The position numbers were made by a program, and so were the translations under genes. A stretch of 32,000 nt of DNA from Deinococcus radiodurans R1 = ATCC 13939 = DSM 20539 (lineage in GTDB: Bacteria; Deinococcota; Deinococci; Deinococcales; Deinococcaceae), in NCBI RefSeq assembly GCF_000008565.1, contig NC_001263.1, positions 571,213 through 603,212 on the forward strand, read 5' to 3'. This document shows, one piece after another, positions 5,670 through 31,878 of the stretch (the stretch's first letter is position 1; each line of letters begins with the position of its first letter). The notes below the pieces were generated by a model that made no database searches, was not told the DNA's origin, and was given only the letters and a program-made list of their open reading frames with translations.

Positions 5670-5745
<76 letters not shown>

Positions 5746-5769
5746 TCTGTACCCCGCAGTTTTCCTGCA

Positions 5770-5845
<76 letters not shown>

Positions 5846-6061: not shown

Positions 6062-7090
6062 ATGACGAACCGTCGAAATAAGGCACTGCTGCTGGCCGGA
6101 TTCTGCGCCTCGCTCCTTTCGACCTCGGCGCTGGCCGCTACCCGGGTGCCGGGCACCTACACGTACTACTCGGTCATCAAGGACCCCATCACCGACCTCA
6201 ACAAGAGCATGGTGTCCATTGACGAGGTCAACGACACGGCGGGGCTGACGGCGCTGACGGTGCGCTGCTCTGACCGAGACAATGCGGCTCTTTGGATCAC
6301 GCTCAATTCCAAGAACATGCTGCTCAGCGAGGACGACGCCTACGCCGGGAACTTGCCCGCCCTGACAGTTCGGCTCGGTCAGGACGCCCCAGTGGTGCTG
6401 CGCAGCAGTGAAGTGGTGAGTGTTTCCGACAGCAGCGACAACTTCAAGGGCAAAGCCGTCGGATTTCAGGGCGCGGCGGCCCGCAGCATGGTCAGTGGCC
6501 TGCTCAGCGGCAAAAATGTCGTGGTCCGCGTCAACCGGCCTGCTGGCGGGCAACCGCTGACCTACACTTTCCCGGCGCAGGGGTTCTCGCAAGCGTGGAG
6601 CGCGGTGCGGGCCTGTGCGCCGTTTGGGACGGGGTCCGCCGCCCGTACTCCGGCACCGTTGCCCTCAGGAACGCGGGCTGCCGAGGCTCCGAAATTCACC
6701 CGCTGGTACTTCACCACCTGCCGGGACGCGAGCAGCGGCGCTGTGCGGACTGGCCTGCTGGCGGGCCGCGCCGCGCTGTGTGACTTGGTCATCGAAACGA
6801 TTCCCAACGGAGCGCGCCCGGTCAGTGCGACCTTCCACTACGAACTCGAATACCGCGAGGGCGGGCGCACAGGCAAACTCCCCCTGACCGCCGACGACCA
6901 CTGGCCGCCCGCTGGTGGACCCGTCACCCGCTTTCGCAACGAGGGCAGCAATCTGGTGTTTACCCTGCCGCTCAATGTCCGCGTCCGCTCCGAGCGCGTC
7001 TACACCAGCATCAACGTAACTGCCGAAATTACCTTCAACAACGGCAGCGTCAAGCGCGTCTACGAACCTCTGCCGGTGCGCCCCAACTGA
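6062..7090 (+). CDS. Hypothetical secreted protein (two domains, function unknown)
   Basis: Signal peptide 'MTNRRNKALLLAGFCASLLSTSALAA'. 342 aa with no family recognisable by eye. A strong terminator hairpin follows. Confidence 0.75.
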   Translation: MTNRRNKALLLAGFCASLLSTSALAATRVPGTYTYYSVIKDPITDLNKSMVSIDEVNDTAGLTALTVRCSDRDNAALWITLNSKNMLLSEDDAYAGNLPALTVRLGQDAPVVLRSSEVVSVSDSSDNFKGKAVGFQGAAARSMVSGLLSGKNVVVRVNRPAGGQPLTYTFPAQGFSQAWSAVRACAPFGTGSAARTPAPLPSGTRAAEAPKFTRWYFTTCRDASSGAVRTGLLAGRAALCDLVIETIPNGARPVSATFHYELEYREGGRTGKLPLTADDHWPPAGGPVTRFRNEGSNLVFTLPLNVRVRSERVYTSINVTAEITFNNGSVKRVYEPLPVRPN

Positions 7091-7113
7091 GGGAGCGCCG
7101 CTGACAGTCAAAA

Positions 7114-7160
7114 CGGTGCGGGCTTCCACGTGACTGGGAAGCCTGCACCGTCGCTCTTTT
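7114..7160. terminator. Bidirectional rho-independent terminator
   Basis: 14-bp stem CGGTGCGGGCTTCC (7114-7127) / GGAAGCCTGCACCG (7137-7150) with one G-U. T-rich tails on both strands (TCGCTCTTTTCTGCTTT on +, GTTTTGA on -). Confidence 0.7.
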
Positions 7161-7172
7161 CTGCTTTGCGCC

Positions 7173-7352
7173 TCAGCTGTGCCCCGGGTCACTGTCGTCG
7201 CTGGGGCGGCCATGCGTGCCGCTGCCGTCACGCGGCGTCTGGTCGTCCGACACTGGGGTCTGTGCTGGGGCGTCCGGCTGCCCGGTGTTGCCTGCGGGCT
7301 GCGCCGGGGCGGAGGTGGGGTCCTGGGGGGCCGGCTGGTCGTCGTGGGTCAT
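7173..7352 (-). CDS. Possible 59-aa acidic, Pro/Gln/Asp-rich small protein
   Basis: ATG at 7352 to TGA (+ TCA 7173-7175), translating to MTHDDQPAPQDPTSAPAQPAGNTGQPDAPAQTPVSDDQTPRDGSGTHGRPSDDSDPGHS. 52 of 59 codons end in G/C. TACTGT lies 6 nt upstream, and the ORF ends at the bidirectional terminator. It is just below the ORF-track cutoff. Confidence 0.4.
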   Translation of the reverse strand: MTHDDQPAPQDPTSAPAQPAGNTGQPDAPAQTPVSDDQTPRDGSGTHGRPSDDSDPGHS

Positions 7353-7358
7353 GAGGGC

Positions 7359-7364
7359 ACAGTA
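7359..7364 (-). promoter_or_regulatory. Candidate -10 box (TACTGT) for the small acidic ORF
   Basis: Reverse complement of ACAGTA 7359-7364, 6 nt from ATG 7352. Confidence 0.3.
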
Positions 7365-7419
7365 ACGGCCAGCGCCGCCGGAGCGCTGCGAACAGCGTGA
7401 AGCTCAATTCACCGTTGGC

Positions 7420-7425
7420 TAGACT
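7420..7425 (+). promoter_or_regulatory. Candidate -10 box (TAGACT) for a leaderless rhodanese mRNA
   Basis: TAGACT lies 6 nt before ATG 7432. Confidence 0.4.
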
Positions 7426-7431
7426 CAGAGC

Positions 7432-7713
7432 ATGTCTGAGCTGCCTGCCCACGTCATTGACCTGCGCCCCGTGGGAGAACGGGACGCCGCGCCGCTGACG
7501 GGCGCCCGCGTAACGGCGCTGACGCTCGCGCAGATCGAGGACGGGCAGCATGGCCTGACCCCGGCTGCTGGGCCATTGCTGGTCGTATGCAGCCGGGGCA
7601 CCCAGGCCGACCTCGCCGCCCGCTACCTGCGCAGCGATGGGCTGGACGCGCAGGCCTGGCGCGGTACGGTGGCGGAGTTGCGAGCGCACACCGAGTCAGG
7701 CGCCCAGGAATAA
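7432..7713 (+). CDS. Single-domain rhodanese-like protein
   Basis: 93 aa. The 'LLVVCSRGTQADLAARYLRSDGLDAQAWRG' arrangement matches the rhodanese active-site Cys loop. Confidence 0.75.
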   Translation: MSELPAHVIDLRPVGERDAAPLTGARVTALTLAQIEDGQHGLTPAAGPLLVVCSRGTQADLAARYLRSDGLDAQAWRGTVAELRAHTESGAQE

Positions 7714-7716
7714 TCC

Positions 7717-8910
7717 TCAGCCCGCGCTGACGCGCTGGGCCAGCTCATGCGCGGCGGCCAGCCCCAGCGTGTCGGCAAGCGGTCCCCCGAGTAAGAGGTG
7801 CAGGCCCGGGGCGAGTTCCTCGGCCTGCGGAGGCGCGTCGGGGCGGCCACCGGGCAGCGCCAGCCACGCGCCGGGCACGTCGGCGCTGGAGCGGCCCAGT
7901 TCCAGGCCCTCGCCGGCCAGCGCAGGCACGGCGTCCATCAGCCCCACCAGGTCTTCGAGCAGTTCGCGGCGCAGGCCGGTGGGCACGCCCGTCAGCGAGC
8001 CGCCCGCCGGGTGGTAGCCGTGGGGGTCGCGGTGGTGAATGGCCGGAACGAGTGTGTAGCCGCCATTTTGTGGGCGCAGGGTCAGGCCACTGGCACGCAG
8101 CACCGGCGTCTGCGCCCCACTCAGCAGGTCGAGGCGCGGAAACTGCCGGTAGGCGCGGCCATGCCGGGTGTGCAGGCCCAGTCCCTGCTCGACCAGCGCC
8201 GGACCCGCCGCCCCCGCCGCCACGATGATGACGCCCGCCCGAATCTGTCGCGTCTCGTGAACGACAATCTGGTGGGTGTTCGTCACCGTCAGGCGGTGCA
8301 GCCGCACGCCGCCGGGCACCAGTTCGGCGCGGGTGTTGAGCAGCAGCCCTGCCCCCTGCCCGATGGCCTGCTGCGCGGCGAGCAGCGCCAGGCTGCCGGG
8401 CCGGTAGGTCAGGGCGCGGGGGTCCACCCGGGCGACGGGCAACCGCGCCGGGTCGAGCAGCGCCAGCGCTTCGGGGAAGTCGGCGAGGGCGTCCAGCGTC
8501 GGCGTCAGGCCACTGCCCTCGCCAGCGGGAAGCAGGTGCAGCAGGGGCCGATCCTCCACCTCCAGCGTCTTGCCGCTGCCCAGAGCGCCGAGAAGTTGCT
8601 CGCGGGTCCATTCAGCCTGCGCTTCCTGACCCGCCGGAATGTCCTGCGCGGTCCACACGCCGGGGGCCAGGATGGTCGCGCCTTCCTCGTTGGGCAGGCC
8701 GCCTTCTTCAACGAGCAGCAGCGAGCGCCCGGGGGCGAGCTGGCGCAGGTAAAAGGCGCAGGCCGCGCCCATTCGCCCGGCGCCGATGACCACGATGTCG
8801 AATGCTTCTTCCGTAAAGTGCTGCCCCACATGCGCCCACACCGACCCGGCACGGCGCGGGGGAGTCGGGTCGGGCGGCGGGCCAGCGGGCACAGGCTCGG
8901 GTCCAGTCAT
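7717..8910 (-). CDS. FAD-dependent oxidoreductase (DAO / glycine-oxidase-like family)
   Basis: N-terminal Rossmann motif 'DIVVIGAGRMGAACAFYL...LLLVEEG'. 397 aa. Convergent with the rhodanese gene, with only 3 nt between the stop codons. Confidence 0.8.
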   Translation of the reverse strand: MTGPEPVPAGPPPDPTPPRRAGSVWAHVGQHFTEEAFDIVVIGAGRMGAACAFYLRQLAPGRSLLLVEEGGLPNEEGATILAPGVWTAQDIPAGQEAQAEWTREQLLGALGSGKTLEVEDRPLLHLLPAGEGSGLTPTLDALADFPEALALLDPARLPVARVDPRALTYRPGSLALLAAQQAIGQGAGLLLNTRAELVPGGVRLHRLTVTNTHQIVVHETRQIRAGVIIVAAGAAGPALVEQGLGLHTRHGRAYRQFPRLDLLSGAQTPVLRASGLTLRPQNGGYTLVPAIHHRDPHGYHPAGGSLTGVPTGLRRELLEDLVGLMDAVPALAGEGLELGRSSADVPGAWLALPGGRPDAPPQAEELAPGLHLLLGGPLADTLGLAAAHELAQRVSAG

Positions 8911-9003
8911 ATCCGCATGATGCCGCCGAATGCGCCGGACGAGAACCGGGTGTGTGGCGCCGGCCTCTCACCGCTCTGTCAGGCGGCGTACAGAGTGGCT
9001 CCC

Positions 9004-9009
9004 TATACT
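9004..9009 (+). promoter_or_regulatory. Candidate -10 box (TATACT) ahead of the SpoIID-family gene
   Basis: TATACT lies 8 nt before ATG 9018. Confidence 0.4.
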
Positions 9010-9017
9010 CGCGAACG

Positions 9018-10289
9018 ATGCGGAAACGAGTGCGGCGGCGGTGGGCGGCAAGTCTGGGGAGCCGGGCCCTAACAATTGGGGCCCTGGCGGGATGGGCGCT
9101 GACCGGGTGGAGCGGCCCGGCTCAGGCGCTCGACGTGCGGGTGCTGATCACCAGCGGCCCAGCGGTCACGGTGGCGGTGCTGCCCGTGGACCCGGCGGTG
9201 GCTGCTGCCCCGGCGTCCTCTGCACTGTCGCCCGCGCCGCTGGCTCCGGCGGCCTCGGTCCCGCTGCGCCAGAGCTGGCAGGTGGGCGTGGCTGGGGGCA
9301 ACCTTACCCTCGACGGGCGCGGCACCGGCAGCCCGGCCCTCTACCTGCCGCCCGCGCCCGGCAGCCGGGTGGAGCTCGGCGGGCAGACCTACCGGGGCGG
9401 CGTGCTGCTGCGGGTCCAGAACCAGGGCGTGCAGGCCATCAACGTGGTGGACATCGAAGATTACCTGCGCGGCGTCGTCGCCTCCGAGATGCCCGCGAGC
9501 TGGCCTGCCGCCGCGCTGGCTGCCCAGGCGGTCATTGCCCGCACCTACGTGGCGGCGCGCATCAACCCTGCCAAGCCCTACGACACCTGCGCCACCGAGC
9601 AGTGTCAGGTCTACCGGGGCGTGCGCGGCGAGCAGCCCGCCACCGACGCCGCCGTCGCCAAGACCGCTGGTCAGGTCCTCGCCTACGGAGGCCAACCCGC
9701 CCAGACGTATTTTTCCAGCGACTCGGGCGGCTACGTGGCGTCGAGCGACGAGGTCTGGAACACTCCGCTGCCCTACCTCGTCGCGCAGCCCGACCCTTAC
9801 TCAGTGTCGGCGGGCGGGCCGGGCGCGAAGTGGAGTGCCGAAGTGCCGCTCGCCCGCGTGGGGCAGCTTGCCGCCGGATACGGCGTGCGGGTGGGAACAC
9901 TGAGCGCGGTGGAAGTCACCCGCAAGAGCGCTTCCGGGCGCGCGCAGCAGCTCACCTTCCGGGGAACGGGGGGCAGCCGCACGCTCGAAGGCGCCGAGGC
10001 GGGCGGCTTTTTGCGCTCGCTGGGGGCCAAAAGCAGCCGCGTGAGCCTTTCGCGCCGGGGCACGGCACTGCAAGTGACCGGCGCGGGCAACGGGCACGGC
10101 GTGGGCCTCTCACAGTACGGTGCCCTCGGCATGGCGCGGGCAGGCTACGATCATCTGCGTATGTTGGGCTTCTACTATCCGGGCACGACCCTGGACCTGC
10201 TCGCCGGGCCGCCCGGAGCGGTGGGTCAGGTGGACCGGCACTCACTCCCTGCTCTCGCCCTTGCTCCCGCTGGTGAGGGGCAGCCGTGA
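9018..10289 (+). CDS. SpoIID/LytB-domain protein (peptidoglycan-remodelling, amidase-enhancer family)
   Basis: 'VVDIEDYLRGVVASEMPASWPAAALAAQAVIARTYV', 'YFSSDSGGYVASSDEVW' and 'GHGVGLSQYGALGMARAGY' are SpoIID hallmarks. Start set at ATG 9018 (MRKRVRRRWAASLG..., signal-like). The listed ORF begins at 8952. Confidence 0.88.
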   Translation: MRKRVRRRWAASLGSRALTIGALAGWALTGWSGPAQALDVRVLITSGPAVTVAVLPVDPAVAAAPASSALSPAPLAPAASVPLRQSWQVGVAGGNLTLDGRGTGSPALYLPPAPGSRVELGGQTYRGGVLLRVQNQGVQAINVVDIEDYLRGVVASEMPASWPAAALAAQAVIARTYVAARINPAKPYDTCATEQCQVYRGVRGEQPATDAAVAKTAGQVLAYGGQPAQTYFSSDSGGYVASSDEVWNTPLPYLVAQPDPYSVSAGGPGAKWSAEVPLARVGQLAAGYGVRVGTLSAVEVTRKSASGRAQQLTFRGTGGSRTLEGAEAGGFLRSLGAKSSRVSLSRRGTALQVTGAGNGHGVGLSQYGALGMARAGYDHLRMLGFYYPGTTLDLLAGPPGAVGQVDRHSLPALALAPAGEGQP

Positions 10290-13201
10290 AGGTCTGGTCA
10301 CCCCGGCGCCGCAGCCAGCTCAAGCACGGCGAACAAAAGCAGCGCCGCTCGCGGGGCCTGACGCGGCTTCTGCTCGCCGCCGGCTTTGCCTTCAGCACCC
10401 TGGGCGGACTCGCCGAGGCCCGCACCGTCAAGATCGTGACCGCCCAGACGCTCGAACTGCGGAATGTGGACGGGCAGGAACTCGTCATCATCGCCAGCCC
10501 CGACGCGGCGGGCGTCGAGTTGCAGGTGGACGACGACCAGGTGCGCGCCCGGCGCGTCGAGTTCAACCGCACCCGGCGCACCCTGACCCTCATCGGCGCG
10601 GCGAGCTACCGCACCGCCAAAGACGGGCAGACGCTGAGCGGCGACAACCTCGTGGTCAACCTCGGCGACGAGTCGCTGACCGGCCAGGACGTGCTCATCA
10701 GTGACCGCGAGCTCGAAATTCGCGGCCAGGAAGTCGAGCGGGTGCCGGGGCAACTGCGCGCCAAGAACGGCTATTTCACGCCCTGCGCCAAGTGCGGGCG
10801 CACGACCAACGACTACGCCTTCCGCGCCGAGCGGCTGGTGGTGTATCCCGGTGACCGCCTGATTGCCTACCGCGCCCAACTCCTGCTCGCCGAGGTGCCG
10901 GTGCTGTACCTGCCGGTGGTCGTGCTGCCGCTCAACGACGAGGCGCGGCAGCCCAAGGTGCAGGTGGGCCGCGACGCGCTCGACGGGCTGACGGTGGAGG
11001 CCGACCTCCCCTTCGCCGTGGGCAGCAGCGTGCTGGGCACCGGCCTGGTGCGCTACTACCAGAACCGCGCTCCCAGCCTGGGCGGCGGGGTGGACCTGCG
11101 GGCCTACGCGCCCTTTGCCGCCGTGGACCGCGCCGACCTGTACCTGCTGCTGCTGCCCAAGCCGCTCGACGCCCAGGGCAACGTGCGCGGCGAAGGCGGC
11201 TACGACACCGACCTCAACTTCAGCGTGCGCGGGCGCGTGCCGCTCAGCGAGGCCACCCGCGACCTCGACTACGCCTTCACCATGCAGCGGCGCGACATCG
11301 GGCGCAGTGAGACGGACCCCGAGCGCGGCGTGACCCGCAGCGAACTCAAGGCCAGCGTGGAGTATCCCCTCTACCGCGCCGAACTCAACGTGCTGGGGCG
11401 CAGCGGCCCGGAGCCCGAAACCGCCATCACCCAGCCTTACCGCAAGAAAGAAGTCGTGCTCGACCCCAAGCCCTTTTCGGTGGGCGGCCTCAGCGCCGAC
11501 TTCAAGGTGACGGCGGGCGAGTACAGCGCGGCGAGCAACCCCTTTTCGCCGAGCGCCGTGCGGGAGGGAGTGAACATCACGACCACCCGGCTCGAAGAAG
11601 CCCAGGAACTGCGCTACTCGCGGCCCCTGTGGACCGGGGCGACTTTCGAGTTCTCGAACTCGTTCGTCGGGCGCTACTACGGCACCGGGGCGCGCACGGT
11701 GCAGCTCTCGCTCGCCGGGCAGCTCACCCAGCGCTGGGGCGTGCAAAGCCGCCAGAGCCTGAGCCTGCGCCAGGAATACCTTCGCTACGAGGGCACCAGC
11801 CCCTTCGCCTTCGACGCCGTGTCGGGCCGCCGCCTCAACGCGCCGCTGAGCCTCAACCTCAACCTCGTGCCGGTGCCGGACACCACCTTCACGGTGGGCT
11901 ATGTCCGCGACCCCTTCCTCAAGACCGACACCCAGCAGCCCGCCCGCTTCGGCGTGACGGTCAACCGCCGCCCGGTGAACCTGACGGCGGCCCTCGCCTA
12001 CAACATCGGCACCGGCGAACTCGACAACTTCACCTACGCCGTCACTCTGGGCGACCCCGAATCGGGCAAGTTGCGTCTGGTGCCCGCCGTGCCCGCGCGG
12101 CCCGCCACGCCGACCACCCCGGCGCAGCCCGCCGTACCCGCCCACTACACCCGCAGCAGTGCTTGGCCCGCGCCGCGCCTGACGTTGGGCCTCAGCGGGG
12201 GCTACAGCCGGGTGACCAGCATCGGCACGCCGGGCAAGGACGCCCCGAGCGGCCTGCAACCCTTCACCGTGCGCGCTACCGTCGCGGGCGACGACCGCTC
12301 CAGCAATTTCAGCGTGGCGGCCACCTTCAACCCCGACCTCGACCCGCAGCTCAGCAGCGTGAACACCGAGTACACCCTGGCGCGCGGCTTCGACACGGTG
12401 CTCAGCCCGCTGACCGTTTCGGGCCGCGAGACACTGGGCGTGCAGTACCCGCGCCTGACCGGCAACCACACCGTGACGTGGCGCGACTACACCTTCACCC
12501 AGGCGCACGACCTCAACCTCGACCAATCGGAAACGGCGCGTGAGAGCGGCACCGTCACCTTCAGCGTGGGCAACCGCGCCGGGCGGGCGACCAACTGGCA
12601 GCTCGCTTACGGGGGCGCCTACGACCTGCGCCGCGGCGGCTTTACCCGGCCCGCGCTGACCGGCACGCTGACCACCAGCCGTCCGGGGCAGCGCCTGAAC
12701 ACCTCGCTGAGCTACAACCTGCCGGGCCTTGACCAGCCGTACTCCGAACTCGGGCGCGCCACCCTCGACGGCGAGTGGCAAAGTGGGCGCTTTTCGGTGT
12801 CGGGCTACGCCAGCTACTCGCGGGTCCGCACGGGCAACCTCACAGACGGTAATACGGCCAACGACAAGGCGACCGACACCTACACCTTCGAGCCTTTGCG
12901 GGTGGGCGTGGCGCTGGGCAAGGCCGAGCAGCCGAGCGTGTACCTGACCGCCGCGCTGCGCCAGCGCCTGATTTACGTGGACGGCGAGCGGCAGGGCGAC
13001 GACCCGCTTGCCCCGGTGCTGGGCTTTACCCTCGACCGCTGCTGCTGGGCGATGCAGGGCGAGTGGGACGTGGTGAAGGGCCGCTACCGCCTGACGGTGG
13101 GCCTGCCGGGGCAGTTCTACCCGCTGCTCGAAGGCGGGCCCGACGGCACCCGCGTGCCGCTGATTCCCTCGCTCTCGCGCCCGACCACCCCATCGCGCTG
13201 A
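10286..13201 (+). CDS. LptD/OstA-family outer-membrane beta-barrel protein homologue (971 aa)
   Basis: GTG 10286 overlaps the SpoIID TGA (GTGA). 'GYFTPCAKC...AFRAERLVVYPGDRLIAYRAQLLLAEVPVLYLPVVVLPLND...VRYYQNRAP' aligns with E. coli LptD 'AYFTTC...[23 protein letters not shown]...LPYYWNIAP'. C-terminal 'LDRCCWAMQ' matches the LptD 'SSCCYAIR' adjacent Cys pair. Confidence 0.8.
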   Translation: MKVWSPRRRSQLKHGEQKQRRSRGLTRLLLAAGFAFSTLGGLAEARTVKIVTAQTLELRNVDGQELVIIASPDAAGVELQVDDDQVRARRVEFNRTRRTLTLIGAASYRTAKDGQTLSGDNLVVNLGDESLTGQDVLISDRELEIRGQEVERVPGQLRAKNGYFTPCAKCGRTTNDYAFRAERLVVYPGDRLIAYRAQLLLAEVPVLYLPVVVLPLNDEARQPKVQVGRDALDGLTVEADLPFAVGSSVLGTGLVRYYQNRAPSLGGGVDLRAYAPFAAVDRADLYLLLLPKPLDAQGNVRGEGGYDTDLNFSVRGRVPLSEATRDLDYAFTMQRRDIGRSETDPERGVTRSELKASVEYPLYRAELNVLGRSGPEPETAITQPYRKKEVVLDPKPFSVGGLSADFKVTAGEYSAASNPFSPSAVREGVNITTTRLEEAQELRYSRPLWTGATFEFSNSFVGRYYGTGARTVQLSLAGQLTQRWGVQSRQSLSLRQEYLRYEGTSPFAFDAVSGRRLNAPLSLNLNLVPVPDTTFTVGYVRDPFLKTDTQQPARFGVTVNRRPVNLTAALAYNIGTGELDNFTYAVTLGDPESGKLRLVPAVPARPATPTTPAQPAVPAHYTRSSAWPAPRLTLGLSGGYSRVTSIGTPGKDAPSGLQPFTVRATVAGDDRSSNFSVAATFNPDLDPQLSSVNTEYTLARGFDTVLSPLTVSGRETLGVQYPRLTGNHTVTWRDYTFTQAHDLNLDQSETARESGTVTFSVGNRAGRATNWQLAYGGAYDLRRGGFTRPALTGTLTTSRPGQRLNTSLSYNLPGLDQPYSELGRATLDGEWQSGRFSVSGYASYSRVRTGNLTDGNTANDKATDTYTFEPLRVGVALGKAEQPSVYLTAALRQRLIYVDGERQGDDPLAPVLGFTLDRCCWAMQGEWDVVKGRYRLTVGLPGQFYPLLEGGPDGTRVPLIPSLSRPTTPSR

Positions 13202-13235
13202 TTTACTCTGCTTCGCTATTCCCAGGAGGGTTGCT

Positions 13236-14348
13236 ATGACTTCTACTTCCACTGCCCCGCGCCGCGCCCGCCCGCTGACCGCCGCCCTGCTCGCCGCCGC
13301 CTGCCTGGGCACTCTGACCGGCTGCACCGGCACCGAGGAACGCGCCCCTAACCTGCGCCTCGCCGTGCTGACGGACGGGGGACAGACCCTGAGCTACGTG
13401 GACACGGCGCCGCCCGAGAGTGCCAACACCACCACGCCCGCCGCGCCGACGCTGGTGGAAGCCGGCAAGGTGGAAGAAGGCCGTGACCTGCACACCGCCG
13501 ACGGGGGCCGCGCGCTGCTGCTCACCCGCCGCGCCGGGGCCGAGCGGCGCACGGCCGCGCTGACGCCCGGTACGGCCTTTGCCACACTCCCTTTTCCCAC
13601 CTGCCTGACCCGCTCGGCGGTGGACGCGGCGCGCACCCGGCTGCTCGTCCTGAGCGAGTGCCCCAACGACGTGCAGCGGCTGGCGCTTTACCGGCTCGAC
13701 GGCACGGTGGTCTGGACGGCGGCGCTCGGCACGGCGGTGCCGCCGCTGAGCACGCCCGACGCGCCGCCCGTCAATCTCGCCGTGGTGGGCGACGTGGCGG
13801 TGGTCAGCCGCCCGGCCCTCGGCGGCGGCAGCGAAGTCGTGCGGGCCGCGCCGCGCAACGTGGGCGACCCGGTGGCGGTGGCCTCGTTGCCCGAGCGGAC
13901 CATTGCCGTGCGTGACCTGGCGGCCTCGGTGGGTGGCACCATCTACGCGGCCACCGACAGCGGCGTGTATCCGCTGCTCGACACCGGCCTGCCCGACCTG
14001 ACCCGCCGGGTGGCGGCCTTCGGCGAGGGGCGACTCGACCGGCTGTGGAGTGAGCCGCTGGGCACCCGCACGCTGCTGTTCGGCTGGCACGACCCGGCGC
14101 TGTCGAGCGGCGACGCCTACCTGCGCGTCTGGGACGGCGTGGCGACGACCACCACGACCCAGAGCGTCAGCTACGTCACCGACCTGCGCGACCTGACGGT
14201 GGCGCCCGACGGCAACCTCTACGTGCTCTCGCGCACGGCGCTGACCCGCTTTGACGCCGTGCTCGGCGTGCAGAACAACAACTGGCAGTCGCGCACGCTG
14301 CTGAGCACCTTGAACGACGCCCGCGCGTTGACCTGGCTGGTGCCGTAA
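13236..14348 (+). CDS. Hypothetical lipoprotein (possibly beta-propeller-like)
   Basis: SD AGGAGG 13224-13229. Signal peptide with lipobox 'LGTLTGC'. 370 aa. Directly follows the LptD-like gene with a 34-nt gap. Confidence 0.8.
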   Translation: MTSTSTAPRRARPLTAALLAAACLGTLTGCTGTEERAPNLRLAVLTDGGQTLSYVDTAPPESANTTTPAAPTLVEAGKVEEGRDLHTADGGRALLLTRRAGAERRTAALTPGTAFATLPFPTCLTRSAVDAARTRLLVLSECPNDVQRLALYRLDGTVVWTAALGTAVPPLSTPDAPPVNLAVVGDVAVVSRPALGGGSEVVRAAPRNVGDPVAVASLPERTIAVRDLAASVGGTIYAATDSGVYPLLDTGLPDLTRRVAAFGEGRLDRLWSEPLGTRTLLFGWHDPALSSGDAYLRVWDGVATTTTTQSVSYVTDLRDLTVAPDGNLYVLSRTALTRFDAVLGVQNNNWQSRTLLSTLNDARALTWLVP

Positions 14349-14541: not shown

Positions 14542-17148
<2,607 letters not shown>

Positions 17149-17157
17149 GACCTCATA

Positions 17158-17163
17158 AGTATA
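17158..17163 (-). promoter_or_regulatory. Candidate -10 box (TATACT) for secA
   Basis: Reverse complement of AGTATA, 9 nt from ATG 17148. The spacer contains GAGG, so a longer leader from another promoter cannot be excluded. Confidence 0.3.
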
Positions 17164-17216
17164 GCCCGCCCGCATGACATCCGTCTGAACGATTTCAGTC
17201 GGGCCGGCGCAAGGGG

Positions 17217-28388: not shown

Positions 28389-28730
28389 ATGACCCGCCCG
28401 ACCATCCCACCCGGCCCGCCCGGCGCCGAGGGCCGCACCCAGACGCTGGAACGCACCGAGACCAAAAAACCGAGGCTGTGGCGCGTGCTGCTGCTCAACG
28501 ACGACTACACCCCGATGGACTACGTGGTGCAAGTCCTTGAGCAGTTTTTCCGCAAGACCGAGCAGGAAGCTGAACTCATCATGCTCGCCGTTCACCACAA
28601 GGGGCAGGGTGTGGCGGGCGTGTATACCCGCGACGTGGCCGAAACGAAGGTCGCGCAGGTGACGGCCCACGCCCAGCGTGAGGGGCACCCGCTGCGGGTG
28701 GTGGCCGAGCCGGAGAGCGAAGGGGAGTGA
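28389..28730 (+). CDS. clpS: ATP-dependent Clp protease adaptor ClpS
   Basis: 'WRVLLLNDDYTPMDYVVQVLEQFFRKTEQEAELIMLAVHHKGQGVAGVYTRDVAETK' is the canonical ClpS core. 113 aa, embedded in a longer spurious listed ORF (27174..28730). Confidence 0.93.
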   Translation: MTRPTIPPGPPGAEGRTQTLERTETKKPRLWRVLLLNDDYTPMDYVVQVLEQFFRKTEQEAELIMLAVHHKGQGVAGVYTRDVAETKVAQVTAHAQREGHPLRVVAEPESEGE

Positions 28731-29647
28731 CCGTTCCCGACTTTCAGGCGTTCATGCGTCCGATGCTGGAGCAGATTTCCAGCGGTGAGCCGCAGAAAAT
28801 AGCCGAGCTTTACCGGCGACTGGCCGAATTTTTTGCCCTGACGCCGCAGGACACCGAAGAACTGCTGCCGAGCGGCAAACAGGCCAAGTACCACAACCGC
28901 ATTCTGTGGGCCAAGTTTCACCTGGACCGGGCGGGTGTCCTCACCACACCCAGTCGAGGCGTCGTACAAATCACGCCTCTGGGCCGCGAATTTCTGTCGC
29001 GTTATCCGGAACACATCGGGATGCGCGAGCTTCAGACCATTCCGGCTTACGCCGAGTTCACCCGCAGGAGCCGCTCACCGGCTCAGAGTCCTGCGCCCGC
29101 CGCACCGCCCCAGGCCGAATGTTCTGCCAGCGTGCCGCCTGCCGAGCAAATTGACGCTCTCTACGCCGAACTCACCGCCAACCTCGCCGAAGAATTGCTC
29201 GCGCAGGTCAAGGAGCTTTCGCCCGCGCAGTTCGAGCGGCTGGTGGTCGAGGTGCTGGTGGCGATGGGCTACGGCGGCAGCGTGCGCGACGCGGGGCAAG
29301 CACTCGGGCGCAGCGGCGACAACGGCATCGACGGCCTCATCAAGCAGGACCCGCTGGGCCTCGACCGCATCTACCTGCAAGCCAAGCGCTGGAAAAACAC
29401 CGTCCACAGCCCCGAAATTCGCACCTTTTCGGGCAGCCTGACCTACCACAAGGCGACCAAGGGCGTGTTCATCACTACGTCCGGGTTCAGCGACGGGGCA
29501 AAGGCCACCGCCGGGCAAATCGGCAACATCATTTTGCTGGATGGTGAAACGCTCGCCCACCTGATGATCGAGTACGGCGTGGGCGTGCTGACCCGCGAGA
29601 CCTACCAGATTCGCCGCTTAGACGCGGATTATTTCGAGGAGTTGTAA
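28727..29647 (+). CDS. mrr: Mrr-family type IV (modification-dependent) restriction endonuclease
   Basis: N-terminal Mrr_N winged helix ('VPDFQAFMRPMLEQISSGEP...YHNRILWAKFHLDRAGVL...ITPLGREFL'). C-terminal Mrr_cat with D...QxK ('DNGIDGLI...IYLQAKRW') and 'GVFITTSGFS'. GTG 28727 overlaps the clpS TGA (GTGA). Confidence 0.88.
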   Translation: MTVPDFQAFMRPMLEQISSGEPQKIAELYRRLAEFFALTPQDTEELLPSGKQAKYHNRILWAKFHLDRAGVLTTPSRGVVQITPLGREFLSRYPEHIGMRELQTIPAYAEFTRRSRSPAQSPAPAAPPQAECSASVPPAEQIDALYAELTANLAEELLAQVKELSPAQFERLVVEVLVAMGYGGSVRDAGQALGRSGDNGIDGLIKQDPLGLDRIYLQAKRWKNTVHSPEIRTFSGSLTYHKATKGVFITTSGFSDGAKATAGQIGNIILLDGETLAHLMIEYGVGVLTRETYQIRRLDADYFEEL

Positions 29648-29652
29648 GCCTG

Positions 29653-31875
<2,223 letters not shown>

Positions 31876-31878
<3 letters not shown>

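Follow-up and report, generated by a model that had tools for sequence, protein, structure and literature searches.

A divergent LptD homologue with a syntenic propeller lipoprotein in Deinococcus radiodurans: a candidate outer-membrane end of an Lpt-like exporter

The closest described counterpart of the locus reported here is the LptD–LptE translocon of Proteobacteria, known from Escherichia coli, Shigella and Klebsiella (PDB 4Q35, 5IV9 and 4RHB), whose barrel comprises 26 strands in E. coli (bioRxiv 10.1101/2022.12.21.521298). We analysed a window of 32,000 nucleotides, that is, the whole stretch from position 571,213 to 603,212 of the Deinococcus radiodurans R1 chromosome (NC_001263.1; GC content of the window 65–73%), in which three plus-strand genes encode a SpoIID/LytB-type protein, a 971-residue protein designated here LptD' as a divergent LptD homologue, and a 370-residue lipoprotein (Table 1). 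Deinococci are described as being without lipopolysaccharide (LPS) (PMC10160955, PMC10665443). We propose that an Lpt-like exporter ends in the outer membrane with LptD' and the lipoprotein, a predicted beta-propeller, and that its cargo is an amphiphile other than LPS; we consider this reading probable, if well short of certain.

LptD' resembles proteobacterial LptD in its signal peptide, its OstA/LptD_N jellyroll and its large barrel. The two share a junction motif (FTxC ... VPxxYxPxxxLP), prolines in the first barrel strands and the equivalents of E. coli C173 and C724/C725; each has a dedicated lipoprotein that is co-encoded or co-occurring, and LptD' is linked to LptF/LptG in sister lineages. 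Sequence identity, however, is about 10%, and LptD' is some 190 residues longer (971 residues versus 784 in E. coli LptD), with ~38 predicted strands against 26 and a CxxC in place of one junction cysteine and the N-terminal cysteine. LptE is a small alpha/beta protein with a 193-aa precursor, whereas the partner of LptD' is a predicted beta-propeller of ~340 mature residues, and the host of LptD' is reported to have no LPS, unlike the proteobacterial hosts.

Two further comparisons come from LPS-less diderms. Borrelia burgdorferi BB0838 and Treponema pallidum TP0515 are, like LptD', divergent LptD proteins with an enlarged barrel or a C-terminal extension and no LptE homologue, and a non-LPS cargo (surface lipoproteins or glycolipids) has been proposed for them, as for LptD'. 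No dedicated partner lipoprotein has been reported for either of them, whereas in Deinococcota a propeller lipoprotein is strictly syntenic with LptD', whose inter-domain cysteines are conserved; on the other hand, BB0838 has been studied by knock-down, while the Deinococcota family is known here from sequences and models. Thermotoga maritima, an LPS-less deep-branching diderm, encodes a likewise Lpt-derived fused ATP-binding cassette (ABC) permease combining LptF/G, LptA and LptD-like domains (G4FGC1; PMC10160955). In Deinococcota, by contrast, separate genes encode the permeases and the outer-membrane protein; they form an operon in Thermaceae and Trueperaceae but are not linked in Deinococcus, and LptD' carries a full-size barrel.

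What an Lpt pathway does in LPS-less diderms is answered in conflicting ways in the literature: export of glycolipids, handling of surface lipoproteins, or the statement that 'LptD/LptE are absent from atypical diderms'. The existence of an LptD homologue in LPS-less Deinococcus and Thermus, with a glycolipid or lipoprotein cargo, is already known (Putker 2015, cited in bioRxiv 10.1101/2022.12.21.521298; PMC10353723). LptD orthologues of both D. radiodurans and T. thermophilus are listed by Putker et al. 2015, as cited in bioRxiv 10.1101/2022.12.21.521298. By another account, lptD and lptE were 'never found in atypical diderms', Deinococcus-Thermus included (PMC8871954), a call that is probably explained by the failure of curated models to recognise LptD'.

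The relationship of LptD' to LptD emerges from profile comparison. A profile of the LptD' family, run against 1.8 billion representative sequences, found 363 proteins, the distant ones bearing Pfam LptD_N, LptD, LptD_2 or LptF_LptG domains above or near the respective cut-offs. Transitive links lead from LptD' to E. coli LptD via P0274, P0308, P0314 and P0331; the first of these intermediates matches the LptD' family profile with E 2.9e-14 and E. coli LptD with 1.2e-17. When a Deinococcus-only profile was aligned by hhalign with E. coli LptD and 34 intermediates, the probability was 100% (E 1.3e-45, 560 columns), residues 39–695 of LptD' corresponding to 43–718 of E. coli LptD. A mixed alignment gave a probability of 99.2% against E. 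coli LptD, with FTTC placed on FTSC(173) and CW on CC(724/725). The single LptD' sequence aligned weakly (E 0.03) but in register, and sub-threshold Pfam LptD_N matches occur in 9 of the 21 family members. A Foldseek search of the AlphaFold2 model against PDB returned LptD chains for all of its top 36 matches (best E 7.6e-17); TonB-dependent receptors and every other kind of barrel ranked lower. Many orthologues are named 'LPS-assembly protein LptD' in UniRef and NCBI. On these profile alignments and the predicted fold, we regard LptD' as a genuine, very divergent LptD homologue whose membership of the LptD superfamily is established: the alignable region covers both the jellyroll and the barrel of bona fide LptD, and the model has the two-domain fold of a periplasmic beta-jellyroll followed by a very large C-terminal beta-barrel.

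Several observations pull in the opposite direction. No curated LptD or OstA model reaches its threshold on LptD': a Pfam scan returned no family, neither LptD_N (PF03968) nor LptD (PF04453) or LptD_2, and the NCBIfam LptD model (PRK03761) scored 11.3 bits (E 0.068) against a cut-off of 683. The first-pass annotation, which had proposed the LptD homologue from the sequence, had named precisely this absence of a hidden Markov model (HMM) hit as counting against its reading; the SpoIID assignment made there did find its model (Pfam E 1.2e-29). A profile of the 21 Deinococcus orthologues searched against PDB sequences gave a chance match only. The AlphaFold2 model of LptD' has a mean predicted local distance difference test score (pLDDT) of 80.8 and a predicted template-modelling score (pTM) of 0.47, and its template-modelling scores (TM-scores) to solved LptD are only 0.2–0.3, leaving barrel geometry and strand count uncertain; TM-scores of this size would be expected if the barrels differ in circumference. 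One could suppose from the missing HMM match, the low TM-scores and the inconsistent database naming (one NCBI orthologue record reads autotransporter barrel) that LptD' is some other large beta-barrel, alike to LptD merely as barrels are alike. We consider this explanation effectively refuted: the 100% hhalign alignment takes in the jellyroll, which is no barrel, and the junction motifs; transitive sequence links reach E. coli LptD; the top 36 PDB matches are exclusively LptD, before any other barrel; and lptF and lptG adjoin the LptD' gene in sister families.

Names of LptD' orthologues in the databases vary between hypothetical protein, LptD, autotransporter barrel and a galactokinase chimera. 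P0010 is annotated as 'autotransporter outer membrane beta-barrel domain-containing protein', and a spurious gene fusion in a draft assembly seems to underlie P0117 (NCBI 'galactokinase family protein, partial', Deinococcus sp. 6GRE01). Among the distant profile matches, proteins of 1050–1200 aa (P0275, P0276, P0278, P0285, P0287, P0294 and P0320) match the LptD' profile in mid-protein, at residues ~520–800, in the region of the jellyroll/barrel junction. P0275, P0276 and P0285 belong to the mixed alignment A3, four members of which have an LptF_LptG domain. These long proteins are probably fused LptF/G-LptA-LptD-like permeases as in Thermotoga (PMC10160955).

The OstA-like N-terminal region noticed in the first-pass annotation is confirmed as an OstA/LptD_N-type jellyroll both by the model and by profile alignment, in which it corresponds to residues 43–226 of E. 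coli LptD (hhalign). The barrel-entry motifs quoted there are likewise present, YFTPC starting at residue 163 and YYQNRAP at 257, as is LDRCCWAM at 916. Prolines P205 and P210 of the junction motif are invariant in the 21 Deinococcus homologues. The count of ~38 barrel strands is provisional, being read from the DSSP string of the pTM 0.47 model. Some species carry larger insertions, and in several of them LptD' reaches 1000–1040 aa and aligns to the query only in fragments (e.g., P0054, P0060 and P0072).

LptD' contains exactly four cysteines (167, 170, 919 and 920), all of them invariant in the 21 Deinococcus homologues, and the motifs F(T/S)PCxxC and RCCWA are kept in Deinococcaceae, Thermaceae and Trueperaceae. 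E. coli LptD has its cysteines at 31, 173, 724 and 725, and forms inter-domain disulfides between C173 and C725 and between C31 and C724. In the alignment register, GYFTPC(167) of LptD' falls on GSFTSC(173) of the E. coli protein. An arrangement of four cysteines as in E. coli LptD, claimed in the earlier annotation, therefore holds for their number and for the equivalents C167, C919 and C920, and fails for the pattern as a whole: C170 is an extra residue that creates a CxxC, and C31 has no counterpart. By analogy with E. coli, at least one disulfide between jellyroll and barrel is likely in LptD'.

The LptD' profile retrieved 78 Deinococcota loci, whose gene neighbourhoods were compared. Outside the genus Deinococcus, lptF and lptG lie directly 5' of the LptD' gene in 21 of 21 loci with upstream sequence (Pfam LptF_LptG, E 1e-55 to 1e-72); these informative loci belong to Oceanithermus, other Thermaceae, Trueperaceae and unclassified Deinococcota. 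Thermaceae and Trueperaceae thus share the operon lptF-lptG-lptD'-lipoprotein, and in Thermaceae the LptD' and lipoprotein genes each overlap the preceding gene by 4 nt. Quite apart from sequence similarity, this linkage connects the LptD' family with an ABC-driven pathway of the Lpt type. At the level of the phylum Deinococcus-Thermus, lptA, B, C, F and G are reported as retained (PMC8871954). Beside the Thermaceae and Trueperaceae operons no lpx or other lipid genes were found, save plsX in Trueperaceae: in locus L069, plsX (12138–13277, minus strand; phospholipid synthesis protein, Pfam FA_synthesis) is convergent and follows immediately after the lptF-lptG-lptD'-lipoprotein operon. Other Trueperaceae loci contain open reading frames (ORFs) of similar size and orientation at this place. 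Upstream of the L069 operon, and divergent from it, are genes encoding a DUF4388 and a CN_hydrolase protein. A transposon-sequencing (Tn-seq) paper on T. thermophilus does not mention Lpt.

The second component is the 370-residue lipoprotein, which possesses a signal peptide and a lipobox (LTGC) with Cys30 as the predicted lipidation site. No Pfam family was detected in it. In its AlphaFold2 model (pLDDT 87.1, pTM 0.84), 28 strands build an all-beta propeller with roughly seven blades, and the Foldseek matches are generic seven-bladed propellers: YVTN, WD40, AztD, TolB and the surface lipoprotein BtuG. With BamB, an eight-bladed PQQ-like propeller lipoprotein seated on the POTRA domains of BamA, it shares the general fold class only; BamB is not among the top 50 PDB matches of the model, and one orthologue is entered in UniRef as 'PQQ-like domain-containing protein'. 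Homology to LptE was considered and rejected (hhalign probability against E. coli LptE 0.2%; an all-beta propeller versus the small alpha/beta LptE).

A word-based homology search found matches to the lipoprotein in Deinococcus only. Synteny extends across three families: a related lipoprotein is encoded by the ORF directly 3' of the LptD' gene in ~65 of the 78 Deinococcota loci, with a size of ~325 aa in Thermaceae and of ~460–470 aa for the Trueperaceae ORFs. The Deinococcus and Thermaceae sets align by hhalign with a probability of 90.6% (E 1.3e-6, 298 columns). The mature N-terminus carries a C-T-G-T-x-E motif conserved across the phylum; among 62 downstream lipoproteins from the three families, T stands at +3 in 60 and E at +5 in 55, and the motif is kept in loci whose LptD' is only 25–30% identical to the window protein. 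CTGT is absent from all 19 other lipobox ORFs of the same loci, a small control by which we rejected the idea that mature lipoproteins of these genomes begin with it in general. The LptD' stop overlaps the lipoprotein start by 4 nt in Thermaceae. Judged from the sequences, adjacency and the CTGT-x-E motif are the signature of a dedicated subunit, and the lipoprotein qualifies as a dedicated, co-occurring partner of LptD' by analogy with LptE, not as a member of its family.

The first-pass annotation had suggested a non-homologous LptE analogue. The non-homology is borne out by hhalign, and the phylum-wide syntenic partnership fits the expected look of such an analogue; that the lipoprotein does the job of LptE as plug, cap and/or barrel assembly factor is probable, though here we infer. 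According to our own geometric estimates, which are not measurements, the propeller is ~45–50 Å wide and the lumen of a ~38-strand barrel measures ~55–60 Å, so that an LptE-like plug or cap would be sterically plausible. A parallel for the motif is LptM (YifL; PDB 8H1R, 9KN3), whose lipidated N-terminus docks at the jellyroll/barrel interface of LptD and which also has conserved residues right after the lipidated cysteine. LptM is a short, peptide-like lipoprotein acting in addition to LptE, whereas CTGT-x-E sits on a full propeller protein; the analogy suggests docking of the new partner close to its lipid anchor, as for LptM on LptD.

Some loci deviate in this region. L054 (3714–5021) and L056 (10823–12022), from basal Deinococcales metagenome-assembled genomes (MAGs) of lower GC content, have a lipobox ORF (LLTSC and LMTSC, respectively) after the LptD' gene, without CTGT; their LptD' genes encode 8–9 cysteines instead of four and have neither lptFG nor SpoIID adjacent. 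In L055 (D. pimensis) a run of N at ~10800–11100 lies just 3' of the LptD' gene, and a weak lipoprotein match there (26 bits) cannot be judged.

In the reading we favour, a reduced lipid export pathway of the Lpt type would end at the outer membrane in LptD'. The periplasmic jellyroll of LptD' would receive amphipathic cargo from an LptFG-type ABC extractor by way of an OstA-fold bridge; next would come the jellyroll-to-barrel junction with its conserved prolines and the enlarged barrel of ~38 predicted strands, probably stapled to the jellyroll by one or more disulfides from C167/C170 to C919/C920. The propeller lipoprotein, non-homologous to LptE, would take the place of the latter as plug, cap and/or assembly factor, and the cargo, presumably abundant glyco- or phosphoglycolipids, would be set in the outer leaflet. 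In Deinococcus this pair is translationally coupled to a SpoIID/LytB-type enzyme cleaving peptidoglycan glycan strands, which would stand outside the machine proper. A glyco- or phosphoglycolipid is the most likely cargo because the lineage is reported to be without LPS, and glycolipids or phosphoglycolipids have been proposed as the cargo of Lpt in Thermus, Thermotoga and Treponema (PMC10353723). For Borrelia BB0838, Lpt is reported to affect surface lipoproteins (bioRxiv 10.1101/2022.12.21.521298); we favour a lipid over a lipoprotein since the jellyroll and the junction are conserved and surface lipoproteins are reported to be lacking in Thermus.

The exporter proposal also has evidence to answer. 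Neither lptF, lptG, lptB nor a gene for an OstA-fold bridge occurs in the window or within 8 kb of any Deinococcus locus; a homology search with an LptG alignment is filled by Trueperaceae, and there is no Deinococcus among the matches listed. Within the genus Deinococcus, by the loci compared, LptD' and its lipoprotein have moved out of the lptFG operon. The nature of the cargo is wholly a matter of inference. A phylum ancestor containing LPS was reconstructed by Antunes 2016 (PMC5007114), with loss in some members only, so that the Thermaceae/Trueperaceae operon could serve LPS there. Finally, one Deinococcus clade has no lipoprotein gene beside LptD' (L032, L033, L034, L036, L038, L048 and L053). 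This clade comprises D. radiomollis, D. altitudinis and relatives; no ORF with a CTGT lipobox lies 3' of their LptD' gene, the protein retains all four cysteines, and the partner gene was either moved or lost.

The same clade could be taken to mean that the lipoprotein is a periplasmic accessory (a BamB- or TolB-like scaffold, a chaperone or a regulator), or a mere co-transcribed neighbour, and that LptD' works alone, with a lumen closed by loops or additional strands of the barrel itself. The generic propeller fold, with no specific functional match, would suit such a role, as would the apparent ability of the Borrelia and Treponema LptD homologues to function without LptE (bioRxiv 10.1101/2022.12.21.521298). 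Against it stand the adjacency retained across three families at LptD' identities of 25–30%, with 4-nt overlaps in Thermaceae; the invariant CTGT-x-E at the lipid anchor, which argues for a specific membrane-proximal contact; and the fit of the estimated propeller width to the estimated lumen, both figures being our own. We think this accessory role unlikely, yet it deserves to be kept in view.

Another assignment of the cargo is lipoproteins flipped to the cell surface, as proposed for B. burgdorferi BB0838, with the propeller lipoprotein as a substrate or a surface cap. The LPS-less Borrelia homologue has an enlarged barrel and no LptE, and its knock-down alters the display of surface lipoproteins (bioRxiv 10.1101/2022.12.21.521298). 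LptD' likewise has an enlarged barrel, and its co-encoded lipoprotein shows no LptE homology, has an unusually conserved lipidated N-terminus and counts BtuG-type surface propeller lipoproteins among its fold matches. However, T. thermophilus has been argued to be without surface lipoproteins, a glycolipid cargo being favoured there (PMC10353723), and a single lipoprotein, strictly co-encoded with each barrel, resembles a stoichiometric subunit more than a client; lipoprotein export by LptD' therefore seems to us improbable. Still less credit is given to the idea that LptD' is left over from an ancestral LPS pathway and now serves as a large pore of general use or as a conduit for secretion, with no part in lipid transport. 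An LPS-bearing ancestor (PMC5007114), a barrel far larger than LPS insertion requires and the position of the Deinococcus gene outside an lptFG operon would agree with it; but the jellyroll, junction motif, prolines and inter-domain cysteines, which serve specifically to hand lipid over and release it laterally, show the highest conservation within LptD' across the phylum, and the linkage to lptFG is kept in sister families.

The gene upstream of LptD' in the window encodes a SpoIID/LytB protein with a Pro/Ala-rich N-terminal region, for which the likely start at ATG 9018 gives a signal peptide. The SpoIID domain occupies residues ~152–415 of the 445-aa ORF, and the protein scores 267.8 bits against NCBIfam TIGR02669 (SpoIID_LytB; cut-off 83.3), a family of glycan-strand cleaving enzymes known from sporulation engulfment. 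It differs from SpoIID of sporulating bacteria in scoring too low for the sporulation equivalog TIGR02870 (145.9 bits; cut-off 234.75), in belonging to a non-sporulating genus and in being coupled to the gene of an outer-membrane protein, in the genus Deinococcus only. The usual order in Deinococcus is a flavin adenine dinucleotide (FAD)-dependent oxidoreductase gene on the minus strand, SpoIID, LptD' and the lipoprotein. As in the window, an LptD' start codon overlaps the SpoIID stop by 4 nt (position -3) in ~35 of the 51 Deinococcus loci, from which we conclude that translational coupling is conserved in the genus; another 4 loci have an 11-nt overlap.

The two closest relatives (Deinococcus sp. 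VB343 and a related MAG) have no SpoIID at this position, nor does locus L043. In L001 (Deinococcus sp. VB343, ~6600–8000) and L022 (~240–1620) there is no SpoIID gene between the FAD-oxidoreductase gene and LptD', while the lipoprotein, secA and SpoU-methylase genes are still syntenic with the window. Among the Deinococcota loci compared, SpoIID never lies beside LptD' outside the genus Deinococcus. Since it is absent in the closest relatives, and lptF-lptG stand in its place in sister families, SpoIID marks a genus-level co-expression arrangement and not a component of the machine. Coordinated peptidoglycan remodelling and outer-membrane biogenesis, at which the coupling had been thought to hint, hence agrees with an overlap kept in most Deinococcus species and does not extend beyond that genus. 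The arrangement is best read as genus-specific co-expression of wall remodelling with outer-membrane growth; we speculate that SpoIID might open the thick Deinococcus peptidoglycan for envelope-spanning assemblies.

A more specific picture can be drawn, which we put forward tentatively and hold to be doubtful in its entirety: a two-component translocon, fed by LptFG and exporting the signature glyco- or phosphoglycolipids of the phylum, in which an LptD-derived barrel of ~38 strands is plugged or capped by a CTGT-x-E-docked seven-bladed propeller that replaces LptE, and which in Deinococcus is translationally tied to a SpoIID-type wall-cleaving enzyme that may open the thick peptidoglycan. If this were true, the Lpt architecture would be a general exporter of outer-leaflet lipids independent of LPS.

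A full-text literature search on LptD/LptE in Deinococcus and Thermus yielded nothing on a propeller partner, a four-gene operon, an enlarged CxxC...CC barrel or SpoIID coupling. The propeller lipoprotein that partners LptD' across the phylum, with CTGT-x-E at its anchor, appears to be undescribed, as do the four-gene lptF-lptG-lptD'-lipoprotein operon of Thermaceae and Trueperaceae, the enlarged barrel with CxxC...CC and the genus-wide translational coupling to SpoIID. An lptD' gene that is present yet invisible to standard HMMs bears on phylogenomic studies of outer-membrane origin that count Deinococcus-Thermus as lacking LptD. With a defined partner protein and, in relatives of Thermus, a compact operon, the ideas on cargo and plug replacement become directly testable in organisms such as D. 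radiodurans and T. thermophilus, which are genetically tractable and well suited to structural work.

Table 1. Positions of the genes, domains and motifs of the locus, numbered from the first letter of the window.
Feature	Position	Strand	Remarks
TATACT, -10-like box	9004..9009	+	ends 8 nt 5' of the SpoIID/LytB ATG 9018
SpoIID/LytB gene	9018..10289	+	423 aa from ATG 9018; ORF open from GTG 8952 (8952–10289)
GTGA stop/start overlap of SpoIID/LytB with LptD'	10286..10289	+	read in the sequence
LptD' gene (divergent LptD homologue, 971 aa)	10286..13201	+	profile-profile and model evidence
N-terminal beta-jellyroll (OstA/LptD_N-like), residues ~46–215	10421..10930	+	~17 predicted strands, residues 48–215 (DSSP on the model)
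CAKC (C167-x-x-C170), end of jellyroll	10784..10795	+	C167 aligned as the equivalent of E. coli LptD C173 (hhalign)
VPVLYLPVVVLPLND, motif at the junction of jellyroll and first barrel strand, from residue 204	10895..10939	+	aligns with E. coli VPIFYSPYLQLPVGD (residues 208–222)
Enlarged C-terminal beta-barrel region, residues ~224–956	10955..13153	+	~38 predicted strands (DSSP string, AlphaFold2 model)
Pro/Ala/Thr-rich low-complexity insertion (VPAVPARPATPTTPAQPAVPA...), predicted barrel loop, residues ~589–631	~12050–12180	+	differs between species
Adjacent C919-C920 in RCCWA	13040..13045	+	equivalents of E. coli C724-C725
AGGAGG Shine-Dalgarno sequence	13224..13229	+	6 nt 5' of the lipoprotein ATG 13236 (sequence 13190–13245)
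Lipoprotein gene (370 aa)	13236..14348	+	lipobox, propeller model, synteny
Cys30 and C-T-G-T-E-E mature N-terminus	13323..13340	+	C-T-G-T-x-E conserved across the phylum

The three genes are flanked by the divergent FAD-oxidoreductase gene (7717–8910, minus strand) and by convergent secA (14542–17175, minus strand). The nearest species-representative genome is that of Deinococcus sp. VB343, with 73% amino-acid identity at the 971-aa protein. The gene calls are secure, as the G+C content at third codon positions (GC3) is 0.84–0.92 in the three gene frames and 0.6–0.7 in the overlapping alternative frames. The GTG within the GTGA overlap is the sole in-frame start that preserves the signal peptide of LptD'; its stop TGA (13199–13201) is followed by a 34-nt spacer containing AGGAGG and then by the lipoprotein ATG. 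In all these respects (co-directional genes, overlap, and gap with its Shine-Dalgarno sequence) inspection of the sequence agreed with the first-pass annotation. Position 9004, where that annotation had begun the operon, has no start codon and is the first base of the TATACT box. The SpoIID/LytB ATG has no Shine-Dalgarno sequence, in contrast to the strong AGGAGG of the lipoprotein gene, and the box is likely, by its sequence and position, to be a leaderless-type promoter of the operon. Expression from -10 boxes directly adjoining ORFs is reported to be common in Deinococcus-Thermus (PMC12340547). A generic scan found neither a sigma-70 consensus (-35/-10) promoter nor a terminator in the operon, and a hairpin 3' of the lipoprotein gene is no better than those of shuffled sequences (z -0.74).

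The rest of the window is largely housekeeping in content: an amino-acid ABC transporter, an EVE-domain protein, threonine dehydratase, a GAF histidine kinase, CoaBC, FtsH, PurU and an M29 aminopeptidase. A gene at 28727–31878 (plus strand) encodes a Mrr-type restriction endonuclease (Mrr_N and Mrr_cat) and is directly followed by clpA. Just 3' of the genes for tRNA-Cys and tRNA-Val (5671–5845), the plus-strand ORF 6062–7090 encodes a 342-aa protein with a signal peptide and no Pfam or NCBIfam family.

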